Below are positions 1-32,531 of a stretch of 64,000 bases of DNA, piece by piece. Each line of letters begins with the position of its first letter. Positions within the stretch are counted from its first letter, which is position 1. Below the pieces are notes generated by a model that saw only the letters and a list, made by a program, of their open reading frames with translations, made no database searches and was not told where the DNA came from. This DNA is from Cyanobacteria bacterium P01_D01_bin.156 (GTDB lineage: Bacteria > Cyanobacteriota > Cyanobacteriia > Phormidesmidales > Phormidesmidaceae), in the NCBI GenBank assembly GCA_039024555.1, contig JBCCQQ010000020.1, positions 1-64,000 of the forward strand. The letters are read 5' to 3'. The translations under genes were made by a program, and so were the position numbers.

Positions 1-221
1 ACAGCCAAATCAACTATCCATCCATAGTAATATCCATCGTCAACTGTTCTACCTACACCAACCAATTCATCACTGATATAAGCAAAGCGTTTAAAGGAGC
101 TTCTTTCGAATGAAAGTTTAACTTGTTCCGAAAGCCTTTCTCCCCATCCGACAGCTTTGAATATATCGGACACTTCCTTCCAGTTTATAGTTTCTATTGA
201 AGTTGTATATCTGACATGCAT
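1..221 (-). CDS. GNAT family N-acetyltransferase (5' part; runs off the window), candidate first cassette gene
   Basis: Not in the ORF track. Manual translation from ATG at 221 gives MHVRYTTSIETINWKEVSDIFKAVGWGERLSEQVKLSFERSSFKRFAYISDELVGVGRTVDDGYYYGWIVDLA, a typical GNAT N-terminus. The ATG lies 16 nt downstream of GTTAGCT. Confidence 0.8.
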   Translation of the reverse strand, partial: MHVRYTTSIETINWKEVSDIFKAVGWGERLSEQVKLSFERSSFKRFAYISDELVGVGRTVDDGYYYGWIVDLA

Positions 222-237
222 GTCACTACTTTTTGCT

Positions 238-355
238 AGCTAACTCTTATTAGATCGACAGTTTCAGCATATCTGCGTCGAACAGGGTGACTATACTGAT
301 TGTTCGCAGTATATCTCGCTAAGTTGGGTAGATAGGCGGCGAACTGTCCCTATAG
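238..355 (-). repeat. Phased-dyad repeat element copy A ending in an attI-like simple site
   Basis: Minus strand reads ATCTAAT-AAGA-GTTAGCT (255-238). Upstream dyads include the perfect TATACTG-N8-CAGTATA (292-313); right half-sites are at 265, 307 and 348. Motifs are shared with 5302-5466 and 11664-11826. Confidence 0.6.
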
Positions 356-643
356 TACGCTTGCAATCCCCACCGCCGCTAGCCGATCGCGAATATCATC
401 TGCCGTGGCAAAGTCTCGCTGTTGTCAAGTCGTCTGGCGCTGCTGGATCCGGTCAGCGATCGCCGCTCTAAATCTATTTTGAGCCATCGCCACAGCCGTG
501 CAAGACATATCGATGGCCGTAACGTTGGGTGATTTCTCAGTTTTGAACAAGCGATCAATCAGGTCGCCTCCACCCAAGCCAATTTCCTGAATGTGTTGCT
601 CCGCCTACGCATTCAGAGCCTTGAGGGCGATGACATTCATCAT
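350..643 (-). pseudogene. Chimeric pseudogene: class I SAM methyltransferase N-terminal fragment fused in frame to a CysS-like C-terminal fragment
   Basis: One frame reads MMNVIALKALNA*AEQHIQEIGLGGGDLIDRLFKTEKSPNVTAIDMSCTAVAMAQNRFRAAIA then DRIQQRQTT*QQRDFATADDIRDRLAAVGIA. Stops at 605-607 and 425-427. The switch falls at GCGATCGC 456-463. Confidence 0.65.
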
Positions 644-669
644 GGTATGACAACACGCTGTCTATCTGG

Positions 670-1056
670 CTAATTTCGATCCTCAACGATATCGAGAATC
701 AATCCTGCGGGATCCCTGACCATAAAGTGAGTCTGCTGCCAGGGTTCCTCCTTAAGCGCAAAGTGAATATCAAGTTTCCGTTTCTGTGCCTCGACGTAGG
801 TATCTTTGGCATCCGCGACTTCAAACGACAGAACCATACCATCAGTGACTGCTTTGGCATGCAAAAATGGCGGTTGCGTTGCCAAGTTAGGCAACATGAA
901 TCCCAATTGAGCACCATTGTTTGTATTAACCAAATGCAAATAAAAGTCTGGATCGAAAAATGCTACTTGAAATCCGAAATTTTCTGTGTAGAAGGTCTGT
1001 TGGGCCTCTAGATTTTCACAGACATACAGCGGGTACATCAATTTGAACTGAATCAT
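670..1056 (-). CDS. VOC/glyoxalase-bleomycin resistance family protein
   Basis: FYTENFGF and EEPWQQTHFMVRDPAGLILDIVE motifs. Confidence 0.85.
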   Translation of the reverse strand: MIQFKLMYPLYVCENLEAQQTFYTENFGFQVAFFDPDFYLHLVNTNNGAQLGFMLPNLATQPPFLHAKAVTDGMVLSFEVADAKDTYVEAQKRKLDIHFALKEEPWQQTHFMVRDPAGLILDIVEDRN

Positions 1057-1100
1057 GTCACACCTCTATTGCTTGAAGATGTGATTACTTTAGCCAGGGC

Positions 1101-1919
1101 CTACGGCAATAAATTGTAGATTTCGGTCATGCGTCTGATTTGCCCTGGTGTCAACCCAGTCAGATTGCGTATCTCCTTGATTCTATGGGCTTCATCGTAA
1201 AATCCATCGTCCATTGCCAATGTATCGGGATTGAGTAACTCTCGCAGCGAGGCTTGTAAACGCATGATGCGTTGAATTTTCTTCGGGCCAAATCCGAATA
1301 AGGACTGCATGATGCGTCTGAATTGTCTGTCACTCAGGCCAAAATGTCTGGCAATCGCATTGACACCGACTTCACCAACAGATGTTTGCATGGCAGTCAA
1401 AACATTGCTGATATCCAATGTCTTAATTGGAGCGCGATCGTTGGGTGATTGCGCCAAGCGATCGGTTAGAAGTTGGTCTAGTTTGTTCGCTAATTCATTG
1501 TGGTGTTGCAGATTTTGAATTTCGCTTACTAGTTTTTGAATGCCGAGACTTTGGGTTGTGTGTTCACCTGGAGATAAGGACTGTATGAACGATAAATCTA
1601 GGCCAAAAAATGTTGGCATCTGCTCAGTTCTAAAACTGACTCCGATATAGCTGATAGGGCCTGTCAGTGGAATGCTGAATTTTTCAGGAGTGGGTAAATA
1701 CACAATTGAAAATGCATTGATGACGGGTGACATCACCAAGTCGGCTGCATTGTCTGGAATCACTTACAGTAAGGTCTCGCCATCCGCTACATCAAGCCAC
1801 CAATAGTAATGAATAAAGGTGCTTAAACGCTGCGATGGCAACGCACAGTGGCAGGTTAATTTGTCCGTACCAAGTTGATAGAGTTGTAGGGGAAGTGGTT
1901 TTTGGCTATCGATAAACAT
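1101..1919 (-). pseudogene. AraC-family regulator (DUF6597-like N-domain plus HTH) interrupted by an in-frame stop
   Basis: The frame opens at ATG 1919 (MFIDSQKP...FIHYYWWLDVADGETLL*VIPDN) with TAA at 1764-1766. C-terminal AraC HTH: GLSDRQFRR...GFYDEAHRIKEIRNLTGLTP. Confidence 0.8.
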
Positions 1920-1997
1920 GCCATTTACCTTACAACAGTTAACAATATCGATCTATTTGCTGATTGGCTAAAGAGATTGATGTTGTTTGAGGAGTAT

Positions 1998-2399
1998 CTA
2001 ATCAGGTGCCATCGCCGCAGATGGCTGCAGCGGTCTTTCATCGTAGGAAACCTCAGTATCCCCAGTGATGAACAGTAGCCTCGCTGCGGGTCTGGAAATT
2101 TGCCGATGCCACACCCCTTTCGGTACGACACACATGTCTCCGGCCGAGACGATACTCGTTTCTGGATCTGTCTCGTGCCATAGCGTGACTTCAACCGAAC
2201 CATCTAGCACGTACAGGAGTTCGTCTTGCGGATGGCATTCCCAAGGGGTCAGACCGGAAAAGTGGGTCACGCCAGCCATGAGTCCTTCGAAGTGGTCGAG
2301 GATGCGCAGTGCAGCTATCGCGTCCGCTTCAGTGGTGGCGATGGAAAGCTCCAGAAGAGGCAATTCACTTGCTACAGTTTTTGGATTGTGGATTTTCAT
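1998..2399 (-). CDS. Cupin domain protein
   Basis: WECHPQDELLYVLDG and GDMCVVPKGVWHR cupin motifs. Confidence 0.85.
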   Translation of the reverse strand: MKIHNPKTVASELPLLELSIATTEADAIAALRILDHFEGLMAGVTHFSGLTPWECHPQDELLYVLDGSVEVTLWHETDPETSIVSAGDMCVVPKGVWHRQISRPAARLLFITGDTEVSYDERPLQPSAAMAPD

Positions 2400-2444
2400 G
2401 TCTTCCTCTCTTATGACTTATTAGTTGATCAGGACTGCCTGGGT

Positions 2445-2987
2445 TCACCGCTTGGGTAACGTGATGTTGGTTTGCGCTGCAATGGTCTGGTAGAACTGAG
2501 CGATGTCACGGCGCGATCGCAAGTGATAAACCTGTTTTGTCGCCTTTGCGTGCTCCACATAGTCCCGGTATCTGGGGGTCAGTTTGGTATGGCACAGCCA
2601 GACGGTGTAATAACTGTTCAGTGTGCCTCGCAACAGTGGGCTGTTCTCCGGCCAACCAGCAGGCGGCACCCAGCCCCCTTTCAGAAATCGTTTCGTGACC
2701 CACCAGTAGTGCCGCAACACGGGCATATCGATATACACCAAAGTATCGGCCACTTCTAGTCGTTCCCATACGGTATCCAGGGAACCAAAACCATCCATAA
2801 CCCACTGGTTTTGTTGCAGCAGCGCAGTGTGGGCCGCTTTGAACTCGGCATGGGGCACTTCGTCACCACCGATTTTGTATTTCATAGCATCGAGCGGCAT
2901 CCAGGGTAGGCCGGTCATATCCGCTAGACGTTGGCTGAGGGTAGATTTTCCCCCACCCGCATTACCAAAGACAGCCACTTTTTTCAT
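2445..2987 (-). CDS. P-loop kinase, adenylate kinase/FlaR-like
   Basis: GNAGGGKST Walker A and WVMDG motif. Confidence 0.8.
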   Translation of the reverse strand: MKKVAVFGNAGGGKSTLSQRLADMTGLPWMPLDAMKYKIGGDEVPHAEFKAAHTALLQQNQWVMDGFGSLDTVWERLEVADTLVYIDMPVLRHYWWVTKRFLKGGWVPPAGWPENSPLLRGTLNSYYTVWLCHTKLTPRYRDYVEHAKATKQVYHLRSRRDIAQFYQTIAAQTNITLPKR

Positions 2988-3017
2988 GGGCCTTTCCTCC
3001 CTATATCTATTTTTCTT

Positions 3018-3350
3018 CTAATGCTCCTGAGATTGAGCACCCAACCAGTTCTCCTGAAACTCTCCTGACAGCACAAACTTCGGAAATGTATAGAACTGCT
3101 CGGTGTACAGGCGAGTTGCAAAATTCCAGCCACTGCGGAAGGGTTCTGGAGCCTGCACTTCTAGATCATGTCCTTTGCGCTGCAACCCCAGTGATGCCAC
3201 GGCTACGCCAACGCACGTCAAAGCTGGCAAGGGCTTGCGAGAAGAGATTGCGACGACCAATCCTAAATGAGCCAGGATAAACAAGGGAACGGCAACCAAA
3301 TGGAGTAGCAAATTAGTCCGGTGGGCATGGACTTGAGAATAGGGTTTCAT
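3018..3350 (-). CDS. Mpo1/DUF962-like small membrane protein
   Basis: YSQVHAHRTNLLLHLVAVP, QRKGHDLE and EQF motifs; hydrophobic segments. Confidence 0.65.
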   Translation of the reverse strand: MKPYSQVHAHRTNLLLHLVAVPLFILAHLGLVVAISSRKPLPALTCVGVAVASLGLQRKGHDLEVQAPEPFRSGWNFATRLYTEQFYTFPKFVLSGEFQENWLGAQSQEH

Positions 3351-3365
3351 AGCTCATTCCTTCTA

Positions 3366-3419
3366 TTATGTTAACACTGTCAACATAAGGTTAGCGTAGC
3401 AAGTTAACACTGTCAACTT
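3366..3419. promoter_or_regulatory. Tandem palindromic operators, probably bound by the adjacent TetR
   Basis: TTATGTTAACACTGTCAACATAA (3366-3388) and AAGTTAACACTGTCAACTT (3401-3419): two near-perfect palindromes sharing a 15-bp core, between divergent genes. Confidence 0.75.
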
Positions 3420-3459
3420 CTTGTGATACGGTGTTTGTATTTAGTAAGCCACTTCACCA

Positions 3460-4086
3460 ATGCCTAAAGCGCGCTCCAGGGCTACGTATCACCATGGCGA
3501 TTTACGACAAGCGTTGATTGAAGCAGCATTGGCAATCATTGTGGAAGACCGGGATGCTGCTAATGTCTCTCTGCGAGCAGTTGCCCGTCGAGTGGGGGTT
3601 TCCCAAACGGCTCCCTATCGCCACTTTGCTGACAAGGACGCTTTGTTAGCGGCTGTGGCGGAAGAGGGGTTTCAGCGGTTGGTGAAGGCTTTAGACGCCG
3701 ATGCTGGCTCCGGCCCACTCGCAAGGTTGCAGTCCAGTGGGGTAGCCTATGTAAAATTTGCGATCGCCCATCCTGCCCACTACCGGGTGATGTTTAGCAC
3801 CTTCCGAATAGAGCAAGGGAATGATTCATCACTGAACGCAGCGGCGGGGGAGGCGTTTGCCGTGATGGTGGATGCCATCTCCGCAGGGCAAGCAATGGGA
3901 GCAATACAACCTGGCCACCCTCGCCAGTTAGCCTGGATCACCTGGTCATTAGTTCACGGGTTGGCGCTTCTACTGATCGATCGTCAACTGCCAGTCGTCG
4001 ATGAGCAGGACATGTTATCCCTAGTCACCCTGGCAACCCAGAGTTTGGTTTATGGTCTTCAGAAACCAAACTCTGGGTTGCATTAA
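3460..4086 (+). CDS. TetR/AcrR family regulator (WHG-type C-domain)
   Basis: YHHGDLRQALI...SLRAVARRVGVSQTAPYRHF HTH; WSLVHG. Confidence 0.92.
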   Translation: MPKARSRATYHHGDLRQALIEAALAIIVEDRDAANVSLRAVARRVGVSQTAPYRHFADKDALLAAVAEEGFQRLVKALDADAGSGPLARLQSSGVAYVKFAIAHPAHYRVMFSTFRIEQGNDSSLNAAAGEAFAVMVDAISAGQAMGAIQPGHPRQLAWITWSLVHGLALLLIDRQLPVVDEQDMLSLVTLATQSLVYGLQKPNSGLH

Positions 4087-4153
4087 AAATAGTCTGTTGT
4101 TTGAGATGTTTTGCCCTAAAAGTTCTAGCGGTTGGTGAAACGTTATCTCTGCT

Positions 4154-4237
4154 GGCTAACGTGAAGCTGAGCGGCGGTCGGGATTTTAGCATCACTACCT
4201 AATTTCACGCTCCGTCCGCTCCTGCGCAGGGTTAGAC
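4154..4237 (-). mobile_element. attC-like integron cassette recombination site (best conserved copy)
   Basis: Minus strand GTCTAAC-cctgcgcaggagcggacgg...ccgccgctcagcttcac-GTTAGCC: R'' matches RYYYAAC, GAGCGG/CCGCTC inner stem, R' begins GTT; 84 bp. Confidence 0.75.
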
Positions 4238-4332
4238 AGCTTTCAGATGGTAAAAGTCCGCTAAAGCCATACACCTGCCTCAGCTTATAAATTTGTGCTC
4301 ACTTAGCATATTGTAACCAAAGCGAATTGGGG

Positions 4333-4767
4333 TTATTTACTCTGAACAGGGAAATAATCTGTATGGATACTATCGACAAAATGCGTTTGAGGGTCGAGAT
4401 TCTTTTCTTCTACTTCATATTGGTAGAGCATATACTTTGCTTTCTTTAGAAAAACTGTTTCTTTTTTCTTCACTTTTTCCCCGTCAACCTCGTATATGCC
4501 TGAATACTCATACCGACATATCCACCCTGTATTATCTATATAGTCTTCCTTGAGTTCACATGCCCCCGTCCCTTGTCCTTTTACAGTGAGAGCACTCATT
4601 GCTTGTTGAACTTCTCCTAGAAGCATATATTTTCTGATGCTTTTGGATAATGGTGGAGAGGGTTGATATTCGGGTGTATTGTATGCATTTATTCCAGTAA
4701 AAATATAAATTGATGCAAATGTTACACCGAAAATTGTGAGTACTATCTTGTAAAACGTAGAACTCAT
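4333..4767 (-). CDS. Hypothetical membrane-anchored protein (cassette-borne)
   Basis: 144-aa AT-rich ORF with an N-terminal TM helix, between GTTAGAC 5302-5308 and the attC at 4154-4237. Confidence 0.6.
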   Translation of the reverse strand: MSSTFYKIVLTIFGVTFASIYIFTGINAYNTPEYQPSPPLSKSIRKYMLLGEVQQAMSALTVKGQGTGACELKEDYIDNTGWICRYEYSGIYEVDGEKVKKKETVFLKKAKYMLYQYEVEEKNLDPQTHFVDSIHTDYFPVQSK

Positions 4768-4821
4768 AGTTCTTGTATGAGATGTTGAATGTGACTATCT
4801 TGTATTTCTGTAGATTTTTTG

Positions 4822-5100
4822 TCACCCAAGAGTTGAAAACTTGATTTCAGGCCAATCTTGAAACATTAATCCTTCTCGTTGTGCTTTAGCTATTATTTGT
4901 GATTGCACATTGAAAATCTCATCAAAAGTAGCCTTCTTCAGCGCTCTAGCAGCTTTAGTTACATCTGCCTCCTCTGGGATATGCTTCACATTGTTGAGAG
5001 TATAAGATCCTTTCGGAATCTTCAGAGCCTCTTCTATTGAGTGTTCGGGATGCCAAATCTCTAGATTCATACCTTGATTTTTGAAAATTATGTATGGCAC
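4822..5100 (-). CDS. Hypothetical protein, possibly the 3' remnant of a longer gene (cassette-borne)
   Basis: 92-aa ORF with GTG start; the upstream 200 bp has stop-interrupted frames. Confidence 0.4.
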   Translation of the reverse strand: MPYIIFKNQGMNLEIWHPEHSIEEALKIPKGSYTLNNVKHIPEEADVTKAARALKKATFDEIFNVQSQIIAKAQREGLMFQDWPEIKFSTLG

Positions 5101-5301
5101 ACGGAAAAGTCTTCGCTCGAAAGCCTAGCACTTCTACAGAAGCAGAAATTAACTTTTCTATCTTTCTCTAATATCTTGTATCAAGAATCGTTAAGACGCT
5201 CTTGTGGGTTCTGGATGGAAAATTAATAAAATTTCAAACATGAAGGTCTCTGTTCATTCATAAGCAGTGTGATGCAGTATTTTTTAGACTGGTTTATGGC
5301 G

Positions 5302-5466
5302 GTCTAACTACTTATTAGATCTACTTTTTCAGTCTATCTCCCCTTATCGGCATACTATACTGCAAACTTTCAGTCTATCCATCCAAATTGGCGTACTATA
5401 CTGCAAACTGTCCATATAGCATGCTCATATTAGGTAGATATATGGACAGTTTCAGTCTATCTCCCA
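5302..5466 (-). repeat. Phased-dyad repeat element copy B ending in an attI-like simple site
   Basis: Minus strand ATCTAAT-AAGTA-GTTAGAC (5320-5302). CAGTCTATC at 5330, 5371 and 5453; CTATACTGCAAACT at 5355 and 5396 (41-bp period). Perfect 14-bp inverted repeat at 5405-5418/5439-5452. Confidence 0.7.
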
Positions 5467-5476
5467 TCCAAGAGGA

Positions 5477-5933
5477 TTAAAAAGTAGAGTCTCGTTTATG
5501 AGCAAGCTGAGCTACAAATGCTTGATACATATCTGTTGTAATACTCTGTTGAACTTGAGTAAGCACAGTAGCTAAGTCACTTTTCAAAAGAGCATCTACC
5601 TGTAAATCCAATCCAGGAAATACCTTACTCCGAATAATCTCTTGTCCATCAGACAACAGCAGTACATAATCACCATCCTCTAACGAATACCAACTAATTT
5701 TCTTCTCAGCTACCTGCCAAACAACATACTCCTTTATCCCATTCCAGCGATAAACCGTTTTCTTCTCATACAAATCATAGGCCGCACTACTAGCTGCAAT
5801 TTCAACAATTAGCTCTGGAACCCCTTCCACATAGTCATCATCACTAATACGCGACTGCCCACCATAGGCTTCATAAATCCGCAGTAACGCATCTGGCTGT
5901 GGCTCATTATCTAGATCCAACCGTACTGTTGTG
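5477..5933 (-). pseudogene. 5'-truncated Uma2 (DUF820) endonuclease-fold gene, paralogue of 11828-12535
   Basis: Highly similar to the C-terminal ~150 aa of the intact copy (EPQPDALLRI, PELIVEIAASS); homology ends abruptly at ~5933. Confidence 0.85.
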
Positions 5934-6024
5934 CGTTAGAAAAGTAGCTCTCTGGCTGGTGGTCTGTTCTAGTTGTCTAGAATCTGTCTTGCCGTGTGGT
6001 CTAACTTATTATGTATTAAAGTAA

Positions 6025-6405
6025 CTATGGCTCACATTTTAGCAAAACAGTCTCTGAAAATTGTTGTTGTAATTCTGTTAGCGTTTCAGTGCTGGGAGCC
6101 TGACCAAAGGGATTACCCAGCTCAGCGGGAGTGGGAATTGTTGTCAGAATGGTTTGATCAATATCGGTTACCACGACGACCTGAGAAATCTTACGCTGAT
6201 TCGCCTGACTTTTTTGGTGCAGTTCAGCATAGGGCTGAACCACGGCGGTCTGCCACTGGGCGGGAGGACAATAACTTTGATCAATAATTACTGTTACCTC
6301 CGGTACCTGCACAGCGTAGCGTAAACCCAGGCCCAGGCCACCAAAGGCTAACCAGCCTAAACCTAGGGTACTTATCAAGCGCTTTGTCGGATTTTGTGGA
6401 GCCAT
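6025..6405 (-). CDS. Hypothetical membrane-anchored protein with a degenerate vWA-like domain
   Basis: TM helix followed by VTVIIDQSYC; translationally coupled to the upstream vWA gene. Confidence 0.65.
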   Translation of the reverse strand: MAPQNPTKRLISTLGLGWLAFGGLGLGLRYAVQVPEVTVIIDQSYCPPAQWQTAVVQPYAELHQKSQANQRKISQVVVVTDIDQTILTTIPTPAELGNPFGQAPSTETLTELQQQFSETVLLKCEP

Positions 6406-8153
6406 TACAGATTTACCTGGAATAAGTCCTTAAACAGGGTTTGCACATTTTCGGGATTGCCTTGCTTTACCGTTGATTCCCGCAAACTGGCAATGGCTTG
6501 GAGTTCCGATTCATTCACATTACCGTAGGCAATGGGATAGAAACGCACATCGCTGTATTGCATAATGTCTTTCACATCACGGAAAAGATTCCCTTGATTC
6601 ACCTCGCCATCGGAGAGTAATAACAGATAGAACCGACCATTGGGATCACTGGCGCGTTTTTCCATTAGATCCGCCAGAGCTACCATCACACCATCGTACA
6701 TAGCCGTTCCTCCATCGGCCTGGAGTTGATCAATGGCCGCCAACAGTTTTTTCTGCTGCAGTTCATCATAAGGTGTGAGTTCCAAACGGCGCACAGGCTG
6801 ATCGGCAAAGGTAACCAGACCCACCTGATTGCCCTGGTTAATTTGCTGACTGGCAATACGCAAACCTGCTTGTACCGCCTGTAGAGGTTCTCCATCCATG
6901 GAGCCGCTAGTGTCAATCACCATTTCCAGGTAAACGGTACGACCGCTATCTTTATTAATTTTCCAACTTGATTGTGCTGCTAAGAGAGTCTCTCCATCTG
7001 GGATGGGAGGATGGGACGCCTTCAGATAATCGGTACGTACAAACCCTTGAGCATTGGCTAGCTTTACCATGTCGGGAGATTGGGCAAAGGTGGCAAATTT
7101 TTGTAGGGCGGCAGCGATTTCTGGGTTGTTCCAGCCAAAGCCCACCAGTGGGTTGTTATGGGGAATGCCAAAGGGAATAAACTCGGTGGACTCAAACCCA
7201 GCTACTTGTTTAAGGGCCAGGTAGTTTTGATACTCCAGAGGAAATGCCTGTAGTTTGGTTTGGTCCCTGAGAAAGAGTTCTTGCAGCTCTAAGGTGGTGG
7301 GTGTAGTAATGAGTACCTGGGATTGAAACTGATCAAAGACTGAAGTTACTTGGGGCGTTTGCAGTTCGGCTTTGGTTAAAGTCTCTCCATCCTTTTGGTG
7401 ACCAGCTGCCCGCCAATAAAGGGTATATAGCAAGTTCAGCGCCGTCGAACTTTTGTAAGGGTTAGGGTAAGCGACACTGACCTGCCCCGCTGCGATCGCA
7501 TTGAGCAAACTATCAAAGGTCACATCACTATTGCCCTGAAGCTGCTGGTATACGTCGCCAGGGACCACCCATCCCGCAGTATTGGCCACCAGGCGCTCCG
7601 CCACAGGTGTGGTCTGAATTCCCTGACTCTGGATCATGGATACCCACAAATCATTAGAGGGACTGTAACCTGCCGGTTGGGCTACCCCTGCCCCCAGTAA
7701 GCGGGCGGCGGTTCCCGAAGCGATTTTACGGACACCAACCTGAATAACTTTTCCAGAACTACTCTTTTCTTGCCGCTGGTTAAAGGCATCGGCAACCTCA
7801 ACCAGCCATCGTTCATTTTGCCGATCAATATTGGCCTTTTCTGAAGAGCTATAGATTTCTAGATAAACCTGATCGGCTCTAGGTGAGGCTCCGTAGAGCG
7901 GGAAATCGTCAATGTTGGGTAGGGGTTCTGCAATTTGATCGACCGTGTAGCGACTGGCCAGTTCGTCGGAGACTAAATTGCTAGCCACATTGATTTTGGG
8001 CAGTACCTTCTTATTAAGGGCAGACTGGGCGGTTTCTAAGGAGGTGACTTGGGTTTGACAGCCTCCTAAACCCAGCCCCAGGGTAACTAGCAACCCTAAT
8101 ACAACGCTCAACAGTTGACGATAGGTGCGGTTCGGAATAAGTCTTTTAAGCAT
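6405..8153 (-). CDS. Lipoprotein with substrate-binding-like domain and C-terminal vWA domain
   Basis: Lipobox-like LGGC; MIDAS motif IDTSGSM...GGTAMYD...LLSDG. Confidence 0.85.
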   Translation of the reverse strand: MLKRLIPNRTYRQLLSVVLGLLVTLGLGLGGCQTQVTSLETAQSALNKKVLPKINVASNLVSDELASRYTVDQIAEPLPNIDDFPLYGASPRADQVYLEIYSSSEKANIDRQNERWLVEVADAFNQRQEKSSSGKVIQVGVRKIASGTAARLLGAGVAQPAGYSPSNDLWVSMIQSQGIQTTPVAERLVANTAGWVVPGDVYQQLQGNSDVTFDSLLNAIAAGQVSVAYPNPYKSSTALNLLYTLYWRAAGHQKDGETLTKAELQTPQVTSVFDQFQSQVLITTPTTLELQELFLRDQTKLQAFPLEYQNYLALKQVAGFESTEFIPFGIPHNNPLVGFGWNNPEIAAALQKFATFAQSPDMVKLANAQGFVRTDYLKASHPPIPDGETLLAAQSSWKINKDSGRTVYLEMVIDTSGSMDGEPLQAVQAGLRIASQQINQGNQVGLVTFADQPVRRLELTPYDELQQKKLLAAIDQLQADGGTAMYDGVMVALADLMEKRASDPNGRFYLLLLSDGEVNQGNLFRDVKDIMQYSDVRFYPIAYGNVNESELQAIASLRESTVKQGNPENVQTLFKDLFQVNL

Positions 8154-8242
8154 CGAGATTATAAGCGGGCTAAACAGTTCTGAGGGGTAGCTGCAGTATG
8201 GTCTTGGATAAAGCCCCTGATTGAGGCTATGCGTTGCACAGA

Positions 8243-8875
8243 CTAGGTTTCTAAAATCTCTTTGTTTGCTGCGATCAAGATTTCTAAACGTTGGGGTAAG
8301 GTGGTATCCCCCTGGGAGAGGCTAGCCAGGGCCACCTGGTCTTGCAGTTGCTGGAGCTGCTGGTGGGTTTGCTGCATGCGATCGCAACTTTTCTGCAGTT
8401 GCTTTTTTGCCATTTGTTGATAGGTGGGGGTTTGAATCTGGGCCTGAACCTGGAGACCATCGGCCACCTGCTGCGCTAAATCTACGACGGTATATAGGGC
8501 TTCTAGTAATTCTGTGTGGAGGGTGGGTTCGCGATCGCAAATACGAACAGCAAACGTTTGTGACTGTAATGCCCAATCTTTAACGGGTTGCCAGGTGCGA
8601 TCATTACCACGAGCTACCTGAGCCTGAATGGCGTCAATACGCTTTTGAAAGCTAACTGGGTTCAGTAAATCGCTGTGGTCATTGCTCTTCAGAGATGACG
8701 TTTGGTAGCCCTTTACCCAACTACTGGCCATAACTGCGGCGACTACACCGCCCCCGACCCAGGTTACAGGTCGGTTACCAGCCAAGGCAATCAGTAGACC
8801 AAAGCCAAATGCTATCCCCAAAAGTAAACCATAGGTCTGAGGTTGTCGTCCTAAGGCCGACCAGTTAATTGGCAT
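8243..8875 (-). CDS. Hypothetical 2-TM coiled-coil protein, first gene of the vWA operon
   Basis: Likely ATG 8875 (MPINWSAL); two hydrophobic helices then a Gln-rich helical region. Confidence 0.7.
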   Translation of the reverse strand: MPINWSALGRQPQTYGLLLGIAFGFGLLIALAGNRPVTWVGGGVVAAVMASSWVKGYQTSSLKSNDHSDLLNPVSFQKRIDAIQAQVARGNDRTWQPVKDWALQSQTFAVRICDREPTLHTELLEALYTVVDLAQQVADGLQVQAQIQTPTYQQMAKKQLQKSCDRMQQTHQQLQQLQDQVALASLSQGDTTLPQRLEILIAANKEILET

Positions 8876-9121
8876 AGGGATTGCAGCTCCATGTACTTTG
8901 CAAACAAACGCGGTAGTCAAGCTGTACTCAATATGAACGTTCCAATGGTAATAGAAGTCGTAACGAATCAAGCATCAGAGGTAATAAAAGGAAAATTACT
9001 TTTCGTCTTGATTTATCGGAACACCTCCATTAGCCAGCGCCTGTTGACAGTCCTTGCAAAATACACATGGTACGACAAACAAGAACAACCATTTTGTCAT
9101 CGTCTGCGATTCTGTTTAGAT

Positions 9122-9211
9122 GTATAAAAACCAAAGTCACCGGACCGTAATGTGTGGCTTTTAATTGGAAATAGCAGGCGAACACATCTCCGATGCATTG
9201 TGTTGTTATGT
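9122..9211 (-). mobile_element. Degenerate attC-like site
   Basis: Minus strand ACATAAC-aacacaatgcatcggag...cggtccggtgactttggtt-TTTATAC. The TAA stop of the phosphatase lies inside R''; the R' GTT is mutated to TTT. Confidence 0.6.
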
Positions 9212-9772
9212 TGACGATATCTCGTAATTAGTAAAGCCCCAATATTCTCTCGATGGTCTCTTTGAGCCTCTCCAGCCATTCTTTAGTAGCTCTTTTACAA
9301 TTAGGCGATTGAATATGCCATGACCTACGTACAGGATATGACCGTGCTCTTTTGACAGTTGCACTAATTTTCTCGATGCTTTTTCTGCTCTGAGCTTTGT
9401 ACTCCCATAGCTTTCAGCATTAGAAGAATAACCAAGAAACCATAAAATCCTGAATATTACAGCCCAGGCAAGAGGATGCAGATTGAGTGCAACATTATTT
9501 GGATAGGGCATTCCTGCCTCTGAAAACTGAGGACTTTTTAGTAAGATTTTGTTCTTCCCAATCTGTTCAGCAGACTCGATAGAGCGAGATAGATCACTGC
9601 ATACTATGAATTTGCAGTCTCGGGCTAACTTTTGAAGCTCTAATGCAGGCTTCGAGTGTTCTGCTAATGGGCTGGCATCATACGCTCGAATCCATTCACC
9701 CATTTTGGAAGCTGGAATTTTCGTTGTAGGTAATTCTCTCGGCTTACCGTGTCGAACTATCGTTATTTTCAA
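9206..9772 (-). CDS. Histidine phosphatase family protein (cassette-borne)
   Basis: IVRHGKP, CSDLSRSIESA and LYVGHG motifs. Confidence 0.88.
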   Translation of the reverse strand: MKITIVRHGKPRELPTTKIPASKMGEWIRAYDASPLAEHSKPALELQKLARDCKFIVCSDLSRSIESAEQIGKNKILLKSPQFSEAGMPYPNNVALNLHPLAWAVIFRILWFLGYSSNAESYGSTKLRAEKASRKLVQLSKEHGHILYVGHGIFNRLIVKELLKNGWRGSKRPSREYWGFTNYEISST

Positions 9773-9858
9773 AGTTACGCCTCAAATTAGCGGCGACATG
9801 TAACTTAAAAGTCAACATCCATAGTAGCCAATCGTCCGCTACATTTGAATTTTTATGT
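9772..9858 (-). mobile_element. Degenerate attC-like site
   Basis: Minus strand ACATAAA-aattcaaatgtagcggacg...gtcgccgctaatttgaggc-GTAACTT. Stem TCAAAT(G)TAGCGG/CCGCTAATTTGA with a single bulged base; both R boxes mutated. Confidence 0.6.
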
Positions 9859-9875
9859 AGTAAATTCCCTTTTTG

Positions 9876-11354
9876 CTAAAAAAGTTGCTTTAAGCCAGTA
9901 AGCATTTGTCGATAATTAAAGCAGTATTGTGCAAACGGATGGGAGAGGCTAGAGCCCTGTTTTATCCAGGTAAATATATCCCAACCTGACTCTACAAGAT
10001 CAGAAGCTGCGAAAACAAATTCTAGAGTATCAGTAAAAAATTGAACCTGATTAGAATGAACACTGTAATCAATTTTCGTACCTGATCCGTGGACATAGTA
10101 GTTCCGACAGTTAATAGCCTGATCTGTAACAAATTCAAGTTCTGGAAATCGATCGCCTACGACATCCGTAATCAGCTTGACTCGACTCTGAACCTTTCGT
10201 TTAAGTGATGGTTTTCCTATTCGACCTAAGGCGTTCAAGACGCTATCTCGCTCTGGACTAACAGGCAATTCCTTAAACAACTTACGTGTCTTTTGTTTGG
10301 CTTCAATTATATCAGGTGCTAGGGGAGTTGAAGAAGGATATGTAGACGAGGGAAGGATATCAAACATGTTAGCTGCGCCAACAATTCGGTCTATGGTGTA
10401 TCTATTTTGATGGGCAAAAGCTGTGGAAAATCTTGCCCTAGCACTTCTCCACTCGTCATTTCGTTCCAACCAATGCTTCAGAACATTGCTGAACTCATCC
10501 GGCTTAATTGCTGCTTGCAAGGGTAAATCAGCCGGATATGGCTTACGGGATCCATCATTGCGATTACGGTGTGGTGGCTCACACCAATACACGTCAAAAA
10601 GACTGAACTGTTCTTTTGTGTTCAAAGGCAAGAAGATCAGGTCAGAAATGTTCTGACATCTGCCTGCAATAACTTCTATAAACCTTAAAATATCAAGGAT
10701 GTTTCTGACTGATTCATCTATATCCTTCACAGAGTCAAACACTATGTTAATTTTGATCGTGTTGTTAATTTGTATACCCTTTGGTCCCGGCGACTGAAAT
10801 GAAGGGGCATGCGTCGCTGAAATTTTACCAAGGATAGTATCTGCTTCAAATATCTCATATTTGCCAGTGAAGTAAAAGAGACTAGGATGTTCTCCAAGCT
10901 CAATCTCTCTTCCCACTTTTGATGCCTTTCCCTCTAAGATATTCTTCAAATAAGACTTCGCATTTAATGCTAAGCCAAAAGCATCAAAATCATAGAATAT
11001 AGTCGCTGCATCATCAATACTGAAGCTGAGACTATGAATTATTTGGCATGAGGAGTGGATGTATTGATCACCAAAAATAACAAAGTGAGGAAAAATACTG
11101 ATTTTGTAACAGGGAGTTTCACCCTCTTTCACAAAATGTCTTGACCTTTCCATTTCAACACAGTTAATGAGTGATACTTTCTCCCCGTTAAAGAAAATTC
11201 CACAAATATCTGTACTTGTAATACTATTAACAGGCGATTCTGAATACAGCTCAAGAGCCGTTGCCGCTCCATCTAGAGATAGCTCGCCCTGCAATTTTAT
11301 ACCATTCATGAGCGTAAAGCACCCCGCCTTCTTAAAACCCTTGTACTTTTTCAT
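9876..11354 (-). CDS. ApeA-like protein (N-terminal domain plus HEPN RNase domain), putative anti-phage effector
   Basis: 492 aa, AT-rich; C-terminal R-x4-H motif (RNYYVH); beta-rich N-terminus consistent with ApeA-type architecture. Confidence 0.7.
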   Translation of the reverse strand: MKKYKGFKKAGCFTLMNGIKLQGELSLDGAATALELYSESPVNSITSTDICGIFFNGEKVSLINCVEMERSRHFVKEGETPCYKISIFPHFVIFGDQYIHSSCQIIHSLSFSIDDAATIFYDFDAFGLALNAKSYLKNILEGKASKVGREIELGEHPSLFYFTGKYEIFEADTILGKISATHAPSFQSPGPKGIQINNTIKINIVFDSVKDIDESVRNILDILRFIEVIAGRCQNISDLIFLPLNTKEQFSLFDVYWCEPPHRNRNDGSRKPYPADLPLQAAIKPDEFSNVLKHWLERNDEWRSARARFSTAFAHQNRYTIDRIVGAANMFDILPSSTYPSSTPLAPDIIEAKQKTRKLFKELPVSPERDSVLNALGRIGKPSLKRKVQSRVKLITDVVGDRFPELEFVTDQAINCRNYYVHGSGTKIDYSVHSNQVQFFTDTLEFVFAASDLVESGWDIFTWIKQGSSLSHPFAQYCFNYRQMLTGLKQLF

Positions 11355-11507
11355 TACTGGAGTGCTTTTCCCAATCTTAAATATTCATTGATTCTTTTAA
11401 AGAAGAAAGAATTTATCCTCACTAGAGATATTTAAGGACTCAAATACAAATTCTAGTCATTACTATTGAGTCGGTGCAAGACATACGGAAGATCACAGAC
11501 TACTGTG

Positions 11508-11596
11508 GCAGAAGCATTAAGCTGAGCCACAGACGCCGTCGAGTACAACGCCGTTGGACTAGCGGTCGTTTGTCGGTTCCAGCGAGATTGTTCTTC
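11508..11596 (-). mobile_element. Degenerate attC-like site
   Basis: Minus strand GAAGAAC-aatctcgctggaaccgac...gtctgtggctcagcttaatg-CTTCTGC; L-box-like GCTGGAACC/GGCTCAGC; R' G mutated to C. Confidence 0.55.
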
Positions 11597-11663
11597 CGTA
11601 GCTTTCGCGATTTTATCATATAGCACCAAACGTTTGTACTATTGCTACGATAAAACTATGGAC

Positions 11664-11826
11664 TAGATCTACTTTTTCGGTCTATCTCCCCTTATCAACA
11701 GACTATACTGCAAACTTCCAGTCTATCCATCTAGATTGATGCACTATACTACTGCAAATTGTCCGCATAGCATGATCTTACTGGGAAGATATATGGAAAC
11801 ATTCAGTCTATCTCCTAACCCAAATC
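11664..11826 (-). repeat. Phased-dyad repeat element copy C (GTT core missing)
   Basis: Colinear with 5316-5476 (TAGATCTACTTTTTC.GTCTATCTCCCCTTATC...CTATACTGCAAACT); diverges just where the GTT core would follow. Confidence 0.75.
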
Positions 11827-11827
11827 A

Positions 11828-12535
11828 TTAAAAACTTGATTGAGAGTCTTGTTTCTGATCAAGCTGAGCGACAAATGCTTGATGCTTATCTGTTGTAATA
11901 CTTCGCTGAACTTGGGTAAGAACAGTCGCTAAATCTCCTTTCAAAAGAGCTTCTACCGGTAGTTCTAATCCAGGAAATATCTTACTCTGAACAACCCCCT
12001 CATCATCAGGTAAAAGTAGTACGTAATCGCCATCTTTTAGCGAATACCAACTAATTTTATTCTCAGCCACCTGCCAAACAACATACTCCCTCACCCCATT
12101 ACGGCGATAAACCGTTTTCTTCTCATACAAATCATAGGCCGCACTACTAGCTGCAATCTCAACAATTAGTTCTGGAGCCCCTTCCACATAATCATCATCG
12201 CTAATACGCGACTGCCCACCACACGCTTCATCAATCCGCAGTAACGCATCTGGCTGTGGTTCATTATCCAAGTCCAACCGTACTGTGGTGTTATCAGCTA
12301 CCTCAGTCCCCGGCGTAAACGCTGCGTAGGCCGCCAGCCAACCCATAATTGCACTGTGAGGTTTTCCATGGCGTCGATATCTCAGCGCTGCAGGCACGTA
12401 AACCACTCCTTCAATCAGTTCTGCTTTCTTCAAATGAGGCATCGCCGCATAACGCCGCTCAAATTCTTGACGACTCAGATGATCGCCATTTTCTAAGGGC
12501 AGTGGTTTAACAGTGGCTACATTGGCTAAGGTCAT
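11828..12535 (-). CDS. Uma2 (DUF820) family endonuclease-fold protein
   Basis: LENGDHLSRQEFERRY, AELIEGVVY, EPQPD and PELIVEIAASS motifs. Confidence 0.92.
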   Translation of the reverse strand: MTLANVATVKPLPLENGDHLSRQEFERRYAAMPHLKKAELIEGVVYVPAALRYRRHGKPHSAIMGWLAAYAAFTPGTEVADNTTVRLDLDNEPQPDALLRIDEACGGQSRISDDDYVEGAPELIVEIAASSAAYDLYEKKTVYRRNGVREYVVWQVAENKISWYSLKDGDYVLLLPDDEGVVQSKIFPGLELPVEALLKGDLATVLTQVQRSITTDKHQAFVAQLDQKQDSQSSF

Positions 12536-12600
12536 TGGCTGAAAAACCTGGCTAACGTCTCATTCCAGAACGTCTGCGCTGATTCTAACGCATTAACTCT

Positions 12601-14094
12601 CTATGGCTGCTTTTGCTGATATTGTTCCTCAACAGACTGACGTACTTCAGTCTGTAATCTTTCCAACGCCGAATCACTCTTGGCATTATTCACAATGGTA
12701 CGCATCAAAGTCTTAATCCCCTGCGGTCCCCAAGAACATCCCTGCTCTAAATACACCCGAGCCGCCTGCCCCACTGCGTAGGTTCCATAGCCAGCCGCTG
12801 CTGCCTGGGCACCCATCGCCCCCGCATAGGCCGTTAATCCAGAAGTACCATCCACCAAACTCCACAGAGCCGCACCACTTTTACCAATGCCCAATAGCAA
12901 CGTACTGCCCAGCTCGCTCAACACCAGCGTCCCAGAGCTACGAACAATCGCCTGCCATAGCTTGCTAGCTTCAAAATTGGTCATGGGAAAACCATAGAGC
13001 TTTGCCAGGTTGCGAATCATCACCAGGTCTGACGTAACCCCACCGAGGATATCGAGAACTGCCACTGGGTTGAGTGCGATCGCAGCCGCCTTATACTTAG
13101 CAAACTGCAAAATAATCTCATCCGCCGCCACCTGGTTGAGCTCTGTTGTCGCCTTAGCCAGCTCCGTATCCACCCGATTTGCCTGATGCAGCGTATTCAG
13201 CGCCACCAGCGTCGGCCCTTCTGATTGGATTAGCTCAATCAATGCCGTTTGCAACGGCTCAATCTCCGATGGTAGCGTCTCCCAGTCTTCCGTAATGCGA
13301 CCATCGGGCCACTCTGTCCGCACCTGAATGGGCGCAGGTTCCGCCGCTACCAAAATCACCTCATCTACCAGAGGTAAATCTGTTTCAGGGACAGCAGAAG
13401 TCTCTTCCGTAGTATCGTCTTTCTCTTCTTGTTCTTTATTGAGCTGGGTCTGTAACCGCTGCAGGTTATCGTAAACCGCTTGTTTATCCGTATCTGGATA
13501 TAAATCTGTTTTGTTAAACACCAGCAGTAGCGGCTTGCGAGTCTCGTACAAAGTTTGCAAGGCTGTGTACTCAGTGCGGGTAATATCTCCAGCCACCACA
13601 AACAGAATTAAGTCTGCCTGCTGCGCCACATCTTGGGCCACCTGCCCCCGTTCTGCTCCTTCAATTTCATCGAGACCAGGGGTATCAATCAGTTCAATTT
13701 TTAGGGTAGAAGGTCCCTCTTCCGATTCCACAGCGGGTGTCCAATAAATAGACCGTGGCCACTGGGTCACGCCATTTAGGGGACCTGTTTCTAGAATTTT
13801 CTCCCCTACCAGGGCATTGAGCACCGCCGATTTACCACGACTCACCAGACCAAAAACCGCCACCCGTAGCAGGGTACTATCGAGCTTATTTAACAATGTG
13901 GTCAGCTGATCGATGCCAGACTTTACAGCCGCCTGACGCTTGAGTTCGTCAGCATTCGACCGGGTCAGCTCAAGCTGGGGAATGTAGCGATCAATGGTTT
14001 GTCGGAGACTTTCACGGGCCTGTTCTACCAGTGGGTAGGGGTTAGCCTCCACTGGGGCGTCGGTAACATCCTGCAAAATGGCTGGGTCTGTCAT
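12601..14094 (-). CDS. Era-like GTPase with DUF697 domain
   Basis: GLVSRGKS, DTPG and NKTD GTPase motifs; ALNPVAVLD DUF697 region. Confidence 0.88.
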   Translation of the reverse strand: MTDPAILQDVTDAPVEANPYPLVEQARESLRQTIDRYIPQLELTRSNADELKRQAAVKSGIDQLTTLLNKLDSTLLRVAVFGLVSRGKSAVLNALVGEKILETGPLNGVTQWPRSIYWTPAVESEEGPSTLKIELIDTPGLDEIEGAERGQVAQDVAQQADLILFVVAGDITRTEYTALQTLYETRKPLLLVFNKTDLYPDTDKQAVYDNLQRLQTQLNKEQEEKDDTTEETSAVPETDLPLVDEVILVAAEPAPIQVRTEWPDGRITEDWETLPSEIEPLQTALIELIQSEGPTLVALNTLHQANRVDTELAKATTELNQVAADEIILQFAKYKAAAIALNPVAVLDILGGVTSDLVMIRNLAKLYGFPMTNFEASKLWQAIVRSSGTLVLSELGSTLLLGIGKSGAALWSLVDGTSGLTAYAGAMGAQAAAAGYGTYAVGQAARVYLEQGCSWGPQGIKTLMRTIVNNAKSDSALERLQTEVRQSVEEQYQQKQP

Positions 14095-14135: not shown

Positions 14136-14215
14136 GGAATTTGGAATTCGGAAGTCTGAATTCGGAAGTTTGAAAGAGTGAGCATTCCGAATTCCTAACT
14201 CCGAATTCCTAACTC
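14136..14215. repeat. STRR-like short tandem repeats in inverted arrangement
   Basis: GAATTCGGAAGT(C/T)T x2 facing CCGAATTCCTAACT x2 (7/14-bp units). Confidence 0.7.
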
Positions 14216-15872: not shown

Positions 15873-15928
15873 AAGTCGGAATTTGGAGTTTGGAGTTCGG
15901 AGTGCCCTTCCTTTCCGAACTCCAAACT
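15873..15928. repeat. STRR-like heptamer repeats forming a hairpin
   Basis: Perfect 15-bp inverted repeat AGTTTGGAGTTCGGA (15887-15901) / TCCGAACTCCAAACT (15914-15928). Confidence 0.7.
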
Positions 15929-20762: not shown

Positions 20763-22529
20763 CAGAAACTCTTCCTAAGTAATAGGTAAAACAGAATAAT
20801 TAGGCACTGTAAACTCTCGGCAGGCAGGCTTATCTCTGAAAGAGATTACAGACTATGCAAACCGTCAGGATGGCAACAGTATTAGTACGGCGATCGGTCT
20901 ATTTGATAGGAGAATCTAAGGCCCTGAAGGGCTACAGTGTGGAGCAATAAAAAATAAAGTCATCGGAAAGCCAAAAAAACAGTCGCTGCAACAATACAGC
21001 GGAAGTTTGTTGCCCACATGGGCACGGTAGATAATTGATAGGTTGCGATCGCACAAAGCAGTACATGCACTCCCATGCATGCCATTGCAATGCCACAGGC
21101 GTGGGGCATCTGCCGATCGTCAATTCACAAGCCTAAGTTGTTACATTTCAGCTATCGGATCTAGAGCCCTGTAAGCATGTGAACATACTTAGCCAGTCTC
21201 CATATCAACCAGATTGACTGTTTATTCTTTCAACTCAACACATTCTGGAAAACCAGCAGCTAAGCCATGGGCATCGTACTGTTAACAAAAATCCAGAACA
21301 GAAAGACATCAGTAAAAATCAAACACTGCAATGTAAATGAACAACACTACAGGTGAAACACGTGTTCAGTATTGCATACCGTTCTTTACATTGTGTAAGC
21401 GTTTTATGAATTTCAGATAAAGTGCTGTGTTTCAATTATTGCCAGAATTATATGAAGTTAATCCTAGAGTTCTAAGCTTCAGCTATAGGCCTTGTGAGCA
21501 TTGGTTTTGTGTATGCTGTCAACATTTGTATATAAATGCCGAAAGATCTTAAATGAACTCTATATCAAGTTGGTTTAAATATTCTTCATTATTTACTCTT
21601 TACCGTAGCTTGTCATGAGTCAGCATGTATTTAATCCAAGTTTCTAACAACTTATGCCGCAAAAGCTGAACGTCTTTACAGAATACTCATAGTCTTTTCA
21701 CTCTACATAGCTGTCATACGACTCCTATGCGAGATAACTTATGTGAAGTGTGTTCAAACAATCATCTTGCAAAGCTTAAATACCGCTTTGCGCACTGTGG
21801 TAATTTGGTTGCATTTTGGCAACTTATTGTTTTCTTGGCATAATTGGCTACCAATCTATAGGTCAGAGACATCTGACTACAGGATTAGTCTATTTCTTAG
21901 AATACCCGGAAGCTTCATGCGCAAAACAATCAATTACTCTTAATTATTGGTGGCAATTCATGAAAAAGTATCTTTCACTGCAAAAACTGTGGTGAAACAG
22001 TGTTGTGGGATTGTGACTCAAGTCTAATAAATAACAGAATTGAAGAGAACAACAATAACCAAACCTTTAAGTTCCACAACTGACAAGAAAAATATGACTA
22101 TCGGGACTGCAGTGAAAGTGAACCGTCTTAGATACGATAAGCAGTATCGTGAGACAGTGACAAAAGAGTCCAATAGCATTACCGCTGAATATGAAATGAA
22201 ATTTCAGTTCATGCAACCTGAGCGGGAAAAATTCAACTTTCGGGCTTCCGATAATCAGCAACACTTTCCATAACATCCGAGATTGGTAGGACTTTCTCAG
22301 ATTCGTCCATGGAGTGCTCTGTCTCAAGGGCAGATTGCTCTTGACGAGATTATTTGTCTAAACTCCAGTAATACAAATTCTTTCGCGAATGCTCAAGCCT
22401 AGGATATTTTTTACCTCAAAGCCCTACTTTGCTTGGAACTTTTTCTAATCTGTAATAGACGTATGAAGCAGGGCTTAGCTCATCTCTTCAGCAATCGGCC
22501 TACCTTTGCCTCGTTTGTCTTTTATCTAG

Positions 22530-24944: not shown

Positions 24945-25019
24945 CTAGTGCATCTTCAATCTTCATCTGCCAACTCTCTGAGTGTTGTTAACGTCACTCG
25001 CCAAGTCTAATCTCCCCCC

Positions 25020-25402
25020 GAGAGACCTCAGATAATATCAAGACATTGGTGGCCAGAATAAATCGGTCTTCTCTACGTCGTTACAGAGCGTCTACCTCAG
25101 AATTGAGGCCCAGGGTTGCCTAAACGTGATAGCCCACGGAGGTCGGTTTGGCAGTTTTGGCTGGTTATCTGGGGTGATTATGGTGAGACTATTCTACGAT
25201 TCGAGAGTCGACGATGAGATGATAGTTTAAGGTTTTTTCAAACTGCTTAATGCATGTTGGGCATCCGCTTCAAACTCAAACGGCTGACGACTAAGCCGAT
25301 CTAATTCGGTTTGTTTTCGTTGGGTTGCGTTGGCGAACCGTTTCTCCCATTGTTTTAAGTCTGAGACCTGATGTTGAATCGATTCGGCCACAACCCGCCG
25401 TT
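25020..25402 (-). mobile_element. IS1634-family transposase remnant
   Basis: Stop- and frameshift-broken translation VVAES..QVSDLKQWEKR...FEFEADAQHA...RFILATNVL. Confidence 0.7.
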
Positions 25403-25549
25403 ATCTAGTGAGGTATATGCTTCAAGGTGAACAGCCTGTCGGGCAATGATTCTGCTACACCTCATTTGCATAGAAATCGCTGTAGAGTATATTTCACCTC
25501 ACTAGACCAGGAAACACCATATTTGGATAAAGTCGAGTTCAAATAAAAT

Positions 25550-26299: not shown

Positions 26300-26498
26300 T
26301 TTAGAAAATCCAATACGAAGAAATGCCGACTTTATATATGTAACTGTTCTGACTTAACTGAAGTTAAGTATTAGTCTGCTAATCCAAACAAAGAATATGT
26401 TCAATTTATTTCAGCTAAAAATACCAAATAATCGTACAAACCATGACCTAAAGCAGAATGTACACTGCAAAGATACTTACTTAGCGAATTCCAGATAC

Positions 26499-31484: not shown

Positions 31485-31539
31485 ATACTCAGGTATTTTT
31501 AATCAAAAGAATGTCTACTTTAAATATTCTAGATAAGAG

Positions 31540-32481: not shown

Positions 32482-32531
32482 ACATTAAGAAAATCTAAGG
32501 GCCAAGTTGTTGATCTTATTTGATAAACCGA

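Follow-up and report, generated by a model that had tools for sequence, protein, structure and literature searches.

The standard integron is a platform on which an integrase gene (intI), its recombination site (attI) and a cassette array follow one another (PMC12614218), and attI is described as specific for its cognate integrase, IntI (PMC2095811). Several intI genes may be present in one genome, and intI pseudogenes are frequent (PMC2426708). Arrays are also found as clusters of attC sites lacking an integrase nearby (CALINs), which are defined without attI, a site that is unknown for most integrons; 95% of CALINs were reported not to lie near an intI pseudogene (PMC4889954), but N-terminal stumps would be missed by that test, because it used a C-terminal profile with a required coverage of 50%. 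Insertion at secondary sites has been proposed as one origin of CALINs (10.1101/2022.09.11.507474), and their cassettes can be mobilised in trans, by both excision and capture (PMC9668308, 10.1101/2025.06.18.660453). The present study concerns a stretch of 64,000 nucleotides, hereafter the window, from Cyanobacteria bacterium P01_D01_bin.156 (Phormidesmidaceae), in which three copies of one repeat element, here called pads 1 to 3, head short cassette arrays with no integrase gene beside them. It covers the initial 64 kb of contig C20 (JBCCQQ010000020.1), which belongs to a 6.6 Mb assembly in 149 contigs, 99% complete.

CALINs and single attC sites lacking an integrase (SALINs) (Cury et al. 2016, PMC4889954; Loot et al., 10.1101/2022.09.11.507474) resemble these arrays in having attC cassettes without intI nearby, short arrays and attC sites degenerating towards fixation; the arrays described here differ in keeping a recognisable attI head. 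In the standard plan (PMC12614218) the simple site of attI has L and R boxes separated by 4-5 bp. Seven homologous loci in relatives follow this plan, with a divergent intI, a simple site, a G|TT crossover point and co-oriented cassettes, whereas the pads of the window lack intI and several platforms occur per genome. The site attI1 has two short direct repeats, unlike the 41-bp periodic array found upstream here, and most marine attI sites are reported without direct repeats (PMC3146285). An attI also heads an intI-less array in the CALIN of Shewanella prophage M16-3 (PMC9892861), but only that one case is described, and its cognate intI lies within the prophage as well. The ilvD integrons of Xanthomonas (10.1101/2025.06.18.660453) are likewise fixed chromosomal loci with deleted or truncated intI and CALINs at conserved positions; there, strains with the same lesion mostly have the same arrays, whereas the same-junction loci reported below all differ, albeit between different species and over more time. 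Delta-attI-type cassettes of class 1 and 2 integrons (PMC12901181) are a further parallel, as attI-derived sites in arrays can recombine, but they are short attI fragments in mobile integrons with a cognate IntI, and here whole attI regions are joined to host-gene fragments. No account of family-wide orphan attI, or of integrons of this cyanobacterial family, was found in the literature outside subscription journals, and the supplements of PMC4889954 may list cyanobacterial CALINs.

The sequence-only reading of the window had proposed three copies of one attI-like repeat. The copies align, with the crossover G at 244, 5308 and 11656, all on the minus strand, and a DNA profile trained without the copies of this genome recovers them at 155, 102 and 84 bits. 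Two termini have the form that had been read, ATCTAAT-N4-GTTAG in the copy at 238 and ATCTAAT-N5-GTTAG in the copy at 5302; the third copy extends 8 bp beyond its earlier bounds and ends in ATCTAGT-N5-GTTTT. The element, of about 165 bp, consists of three 41-bp units with an inner inverted repeat followed by a simple site (L box, 4-5 bp, G|TT), and similarity among copies ends sharply at G|TT. The core TAAT-N4-6-GTT is present in 51 of the 67 places that reach the 3' end of the model. Because a short core alone is common (TCTAAT-N4/5-GTT occurs 119 times in the 6.6 Mb), the evidence lies in the whole element and not in its core.

To place these copies among relatives, 79 element places from 27 genomes were fetched from several hundred strand-level matches, ranked by score with intI status ignored. 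According to tblastn, a full-length divergent intI lies beside 7 of them, an intI fragment or stump beside 16, and none was detected beside 56 (for two of these the flank was shorter than 1.2 kb); the orientation of two places was set manually. At the 7 intact places the element adjoins the 5' end of intI, 55-68 bp from its start, with the cassettes on the opposite strand. The window copies have the L box, the 4-5 bp spacer, G|TT and the change of sequence after the G, but neither intI nor a stump adjoins any of them. Its place beside intI in relatives and its sharp end at G|TT identify the repeat as the attI region belonging to a single clade of cyanobacterial integrons. The element could be taken instead for a mobile or regulatory repeat, such as a miniature inverted-repeat transposable element or an operator array, with cassettes arriving through secondary (attG) sites: it is internally palindromic, its profile matches both strands, and copies stand at many unrelated loci. 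This reading is largely refuted and has very little left to recommend it, given the position 55-68 bp from the start of full-length intI at seven places, the covariation of the element with the IntI clade, the many orphans that keep the intI-side spacer or a stump, the presence of attC on one side only, and the lack of any Rfam match in window 1-14000 at E<=1.

An IntI tree of 18 proteins separates clades that each have their own attI core, and the pads of the window match the attI type of the clade that includes the IntIs of loci L008, L077 and L079. Pad 1 has the 4-bp spacer (type B) that adjoins an intact intI in L077, pad 2 is 88% identical to the attI beside the intact intI in L008, and pad 3 carries one change in its L box. 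The attI regions of other clades are also periodic, at 40-42 bp, with clade-specific unit motifs; because the motif changes with the IntI clade, we infer that the 41-bp units are putative accessory integrase-binding sites. The element is found by BLAST in 25 of 36 genomes of the family, with a weak match in 1 of 24 outside it, and by profile in 35 of 36 and in 80 of 100 genomes belonging to the family. Its motif occurs in named records, among them Leptolyngbya sp. PCC 7375 and Leptolyngbya cf. ectocarpi LEGE 11479 (13 stretches), which together with the HIP1 octamers point to a position of this genome within the filamentous, Leptolyngbya-like cyanobacteria; it was not found in viral contigs, and the element had no match in a plasmid database. 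A 2.3-kb contig in a record titled Gammaproteobacteria (L152) also carries the motif, probably through a binning error.

The dispersal of the repeat had been anticipated as well. This genome holds eight element places, the three of the window and others on C34, C44, C104, C106 and, partially, C141; tblastn beside all eight gave only chance-level matches to intI or a stump. The copies on C34 and C44 are each followed by two attC matches on the same strand. Five well-assembled genomes contain 40 places, of which 39 were fetched, with full-length intI beside 3, a stump beside 6 and none beside 30. Strong attC matches without an element on the same contig were seen on C80, C5, C132, C21 and C16, arrays without a recognised head.

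The polarity of cassettes at orphan pads is that expected of attI. Among 43 non-intact places with enough flank, an attC on the same strand follows within 2.5 kb downstream at 31, lies upstream at 1, and is on the opposite strand at none. Over 31 non-intact places, 3.06 of 4 free positions at the start of the first cassette are complementary to the R'' of that cassette, whereas shuffled pairing gives 2.09 (0 of 10,000 shuffles as high). Such directional and precise placement of cassettes at orphan pads is shown by these comparisons at the level of sequence. At pad 2 all 7 bases of the cassette's 5' heptamer are complementary to its R''; at pad 3 the agreement is 2 of 4 free positions.

Evidence for loading after the loss of intI comes from cysS, the cysteinyl-tRNA synthetase gene. 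At 11 loci in 10 genomes of two genera, cysS is fused at one and the same point to the first ~26 codons of intI, followed by spacer and element; at L080 and L118 cysS is full length at this junction. The 400 bp after GTT are common to none of the 11 loci. The simplest reading would be one deletion followed by independent cassette insertions: a single intI-deletion junction with different first cassettes suggests that loading went on afterwards. Over the last 14 bp, pairwise identity among 10 cysS-type loci is 94%, against 80% in the stump and 79% at cysS third positions (selection bias applies to these figures), and the last 45 bp are nearest to other orphans (87-96%), with sampled intact integrons lower (78-89%). 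An orthologous pair after glnA (L113, L115), which has no intI trace, also differs in its cassettes.

The two Uma2-attI alleles of the window similarly have a junction in common and different cassettes. Between the Uma2 fragment at pad 2 and the full Uma2 gene at pad 3, dN/dS is 0.22 at a dS of 0.40; with its open frame, this indicates that the fragment diverged as a working gene, and pad 2 therefore probably represents an import, an allele of the intI-less Uma2-attI platform present at pad 3 that carries another cassette. The edge of the Uma2 fragment is two bases off an exact integrase crossover. Uma2 as a general partner of the element was rejected (0 of 29 other loci). The left edge of the cysS fragment at pad 1 coincides with an octamer that we take to be HIP1, whose density in this genome is 0.39 per kb; of the cysS fragments, three begin just before HIP1 at cysS 1345 and three near HIP1 at 961, and a general start at HIP1 was rejected, the remaining edges being scattered. 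Judging by its cysS fragment, pad 1 is a displaced part of the platform that in relatives consists of cysS, an intI stump and attI. Module duplication, with a host-gene fragment, attI and cassettes moving together, is shown by sequence comparison for cysS, cadA-like and Uma2 fragments.

Further arrangements were recorded around these fragments. A second cysS 3' fragment in this genome (C142:1137-1340) starts at the same octamer as that of the window and is followed by element remains, and the full cysS on C68 has no attI behind it. In L049, L051, L052, L053 and L054, two or three cysS 3' fragments stand in tandem, 1.2-3 kb apart and separated by gene pairs resembling toxin-antitoxin systems, with a full attI only at the last. 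A second module type near the cysS locus, likewise in tandem, consists of attI joined to 5' fragments of a gene resembling a heavy-metal ATPase; it occurs in L050 (4667, 6084), L130 and L143. In several relatives such toxin-antitoxin-like pairs lie between the tandem units, both those of cysS fragments and those of cadA-like fragments. The gene names in these tandem units (cysS, cadA-like, toxin-antitoxin) are presumed from reading the translations.

According to the account we favour, and hold to be somewhat better than an even bet as a whole, these are intI-less attI platforms of one clade that persist, spread as modules and are loaded in trans. The adjacent intI is deleted piecemeal, leaving a stump with attI or attI alone, and such platforms persist across species. 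Modules of host-gene fragment, attI and cassettes spread further, probably by uptake of DNA from kin and recombination in the shared gene. Cassettes would then be inserted at G|TT, after the loss of intI, by an integrase working in trans, the likeliest candidate being an IntI of the cognate clade that was once located elsewhere in the genome or arrived transiently. The insertion in trans after intI loss is, taken by itself, quite probable. The pads appear to arise both by intI deletion, all stages of which are seen, and by duplication or import of gene-fragment-plus-attI modules; they look like intI-deleted integrons spread with flanking gene fragments and not like a designed network of one enzyme.

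Several points weigh against this account. No cognate-clade IntI was found in the assembly by tree, attI cores or tblastn, and 12 of the 43 non-intact places have no attC nearby. None of the three window pads has any trace of intI beside it, and their origin by deletion is inferred from relatives; six of the 56 places without detected intI hold a micro-stump below the tblastn limit, and that figure overstates the stump-free pads. The Uma2-attI junction occurs in this genome only, among 151 searched with three candidates scored per genome. Loci were selected by element similarity, which inflates the conservation figures, and kin are not independent. Finally, the terminal halves of the element at two cysS-type loci (L054, L123) resemble a different locus type more closely, and these mosaics mean that homologous exchange inside the element does occur. 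The last point bears on an explanation that dispenses with trans loading, in which the pads are remains of dead integrons and cassettes differ through homologous replacement, by crossover inside the 165-bp element, or through deletions in old arrays. All stages of decay exist, the window contains three degenerate attC and one degenerate attI, the duplicated gene fragments imply much homologous traffic, and Xanthomonas strains with a common intI lesion usually have arrays in common (10.1101/2025.06.18.660453). This explanation nevertheless seems unlikely to us: junctions are exact at G|TT with complementary R' and R'', the core is conserved above the neutral proxies, and cysS-type pads retain a terminal signature of their own as far as the G, resembling one another more closely than any intact integron in the sample.

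As to the enzyme itself, IntI genes do exist elsewhere in the genome, as had been supposed. The one on C49 is intact and full length (481 bits against a TIGR02249 cut-off of 265), within a complete integron with two attC (C49:233-4360). The others are broken, by a frameshift and a stop on C102 (C102:9343-11889) and by foreign sequence at a contig end on C92 (C92:17915-19008, lacking the 5' part). Searching by tblastn with two pad-associated IntIs returned these three and a 47-residue piece. The attI regions of all three integrons differ from those of the window. Of the claim that a distant IntI serves the pads in trans, cassette turnover after intI loss is supported in relatives; service by the resident enzyme is not supported in that form. 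Such service, one enzyme with many landing pads, would agree with the integrity of the C49 enzyme, with eight element places of which none lies beside intI, and with the well-assembled relatives, most of which hold many pads and yet have no cognate IntI (across five genomes, full-length intI adjoins 3 of 39 places), a pattern compatible with cross-talk. We nonetheless consider it improbable, as the C49 IntI belongs to another clade (100/100 support) whose three members have a common, different attI core, is 60-62% identical to the IntIs beside the pad type of attI, and left pad 3 to decay despite its presence; the C92 and C102 enzymes fall in a third clade. Strict attI specificity as stated in PMC2095811 also makes a resident non-cognate loader less likely, and a cognate enzyme no longer in the assembly is the more likely one, gone or transient, since the assembly holds none. 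A broader version, of which we are doubtful, is that the integron is distributed: intI-free pads would be kept by selection at many loci, spread as modules and loaded by any IntI present or passing, including non-cognate ones reading the 41-bp accessory architecture. Were that so, most CALINs in such genomes would be live insertion platforms.

The features of the window are listed in the table below.

Table. Features at the three orphan attI pads of the window and between them.
Position	Strand	Feature	Basis
1..243	-	First cassette of pad 1, AT-rich gene 3-221, running off the contig end	Open reading frame (ORF) list
244..361	-	Pad 1, an orphan attI of type B with 4-bp spacer; lacks its first unit; G at 244	Alignment and profile
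363..467	-	cysS (cysteinyl-tRNA synthetase) 3' fragment, left edge at HIP1 octamer	Sequence comparison
2445..4159		Kinase-like, Mpo1-like and TetR genes after the 4154 attC	Relatives' loci
4154..4237	-	Intact attC, R'' GTCTAAC, R' GTTAGCC, G at 4160	56.8 bits, hairpin z -2.7
4160..5307	-	Cassette next to pad 2 (first position, 1148 bp) with two ORFs (4822-5100, 4333-4767)	ORF list, Pfam
5308..5467	-	Pad 2, an orphan attI of type A with 5-bp spacer; complete, with three 41-bp units and a half unit; G at 5308	Alignment, profile
5477..5934	-	3' part of a second Uma2 gene adjoining pad 2, frame open	Domain search, alignment
5935..6005	-	Short piece, GTTAGAC to TTCTAAC, between VWA operon and Uma2 fragment	Sequence reading
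6025..8971	-	Three-gene VWA operon	Relatives' loci
9122..9211	-	Degenerate attC after histidine-phosphatase gene, crossover triplet TTT	12.3 bits, not significant alone
9206..9772	-	Histidine-phosphatase-family cassette gene	PF00300
9773..9858	-	Degenerate attC after apeA, both R boxes damaged	25.2 bits, L-box stem
9876..11354	-	ApeA-type HEPN gene	PF18862, PF18739; PADLOC Cas13-ApeA E 9e-7
11508..11655	-	First cassette of pad 3, containing no gene; its attC (11508-11596) is degenerate, with crossover triplet CTT	L093 homologue
11656..11818	-	Orphan attI pad 3, type A, degenerate, G at 11656	Alignment, profile
11828..12535	-	Full Uma2 gene adjoining pad 3	PF05685

Four co-oriented attC-like hairpins had been described in the window, and four sites are indeed located, all on the minus strand; one is intact and three are degenerate. 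They were scored with a covariance model trained on 16 attC from complete integrons of relatives, chosen by a home-made grammar scan; the base pairs of the model covary (0 of 500 shuffles as high). The grammar itself was rejected as a detector, as it overlooked the real 4154 site and gave false matches, and the covariance model was used instead. The 4154-4237 site reaches E 8e-13 and has the R''-L''-L'-R' hairpin together with AAC/GTT and extrahelical bases, and 9784-9845 reaches E 2e-4, retaining the L-box stem with R boxes unmatched. The 9122-9211 site (E 0.69) is at background level, the best match in the other 52 kb having 11.1 bits; 11508-11596 gives no match to the model, and its 86.5% identical L093 homologue scores 23.9. 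The three attC of the 11656 array have CTT, GT- and TTT in place of the required GTT. Free folding gave z scores of -2.7 (4154 site), -0.2, -2.5 and -3.8, which are not used as proof because the hairpins are not always in attC register. With two model-passing attC and no intI nearby the window corresponds to a CALIN (at least two attC), but the two sites, 5.5 kb apart, exceed the 4-kb clustering distance of IntegronFinder, and each array alone has one. The reported absence of a tyrosine recombinase holds for the window's contig, where PF00589 and TIGR02249 have no match. The cassette genes are AT-rich as stated (GC 0.36-0.41, genome 0.47), whereas the statement that each copy lies directly upstream of a gene applies less well to the 11656 copy, which first meets a gene-less cassette. 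The copy at 238 lacks its first unit.

In its present state the window appears to hold one intact and loadable pad (pad 2), one shortened pad (pad 1) and a fossil made up of pad 3 and its array. In two other metagenomes, contigs agree with the window up to 244-245 and then diverge, and contigs of other metagenomes match it from 11516; these break points are predicted cassette edges. One run in this comparison (X1) may be the source sample, and no single contig spans pad 2, the pieces stopping at 5339 and resuming at 5352. A Pfam search with the partial protein of gene 3-221, presumably GNAT-like from its motif, was empty, and neither Pfam nor atlas searches assigned the two ORFs of the pad-2 cassette to a usable family. 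A scan for a Pc promoter in the platform gave 1 sigma-70-like site in 5100-5600, against 1.5 expected by chance. The 2445..4159 block is probably older cassette cargo: in L056 it comes after the attC of another cassette at that same junction, and in L076 it is part of a complete integron's array; the attC model finds none within it. A 22-bp inverted repeat, 95% complementary, covers the 3' end of the TetR gene (4033-4081).

The VWA operon is kept in 12 of 12 relatives fetched and is best seen as ordinary chromosomal genes and not as cassettes; in one of the 12 (L042) an intI stump and attI directly follow it (9840-10149), at the spot where the window has the Uma2 fragment and pad 2. The piece at 5935..6005, possibly a cassette remnant, has no homologue among the relatives' loci compared or in this genome. 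The first cassette of pad 3 is 86.5% identical to that at a stump-bearing attI in L093. Gene-less first-position cassettes of 137-185 bp stand at several orphan pads (L091, L093, L141, L142 and the window) and may be promoter cassettes. The ApeA-type HEPN gene is probably an anti-phage cassette locked in place. Relatives with DUF697-Uma2 (L057, L058) have no attI where the window has pad 3 beside the full Uma2 gene. Beyond the pads, GGAATT-type short tandem repeats (14136-14215, 15878-15901) form a 31-bp inverted repeat between two DUF697 genes, and 21000-34000 is mostly of low GC (down to 0.33), with several long minus-strand ORFs and no significant attC or element match.

Most integrase-less arrays are reported without intI remains, and they have been ascribed partly to secondary-site insertion. 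With a lineage-specific attI model, many arrays in this family are seen to keep a true attI, often with a tiny intI stump, and their cassettes changed after integrase loss. The matched pairs of IntI clade and attI type, both intact and orphan, provide a basis for testing attI specificity and loading in trans, and an orphan attI may help to reveal hidden cargo, of which the ApeA-type defence gene is an example. Taken together, these comparisons suggest a family-wide variant of the integron, consisting of intI-less attI platforms that went on gaining cassettes.

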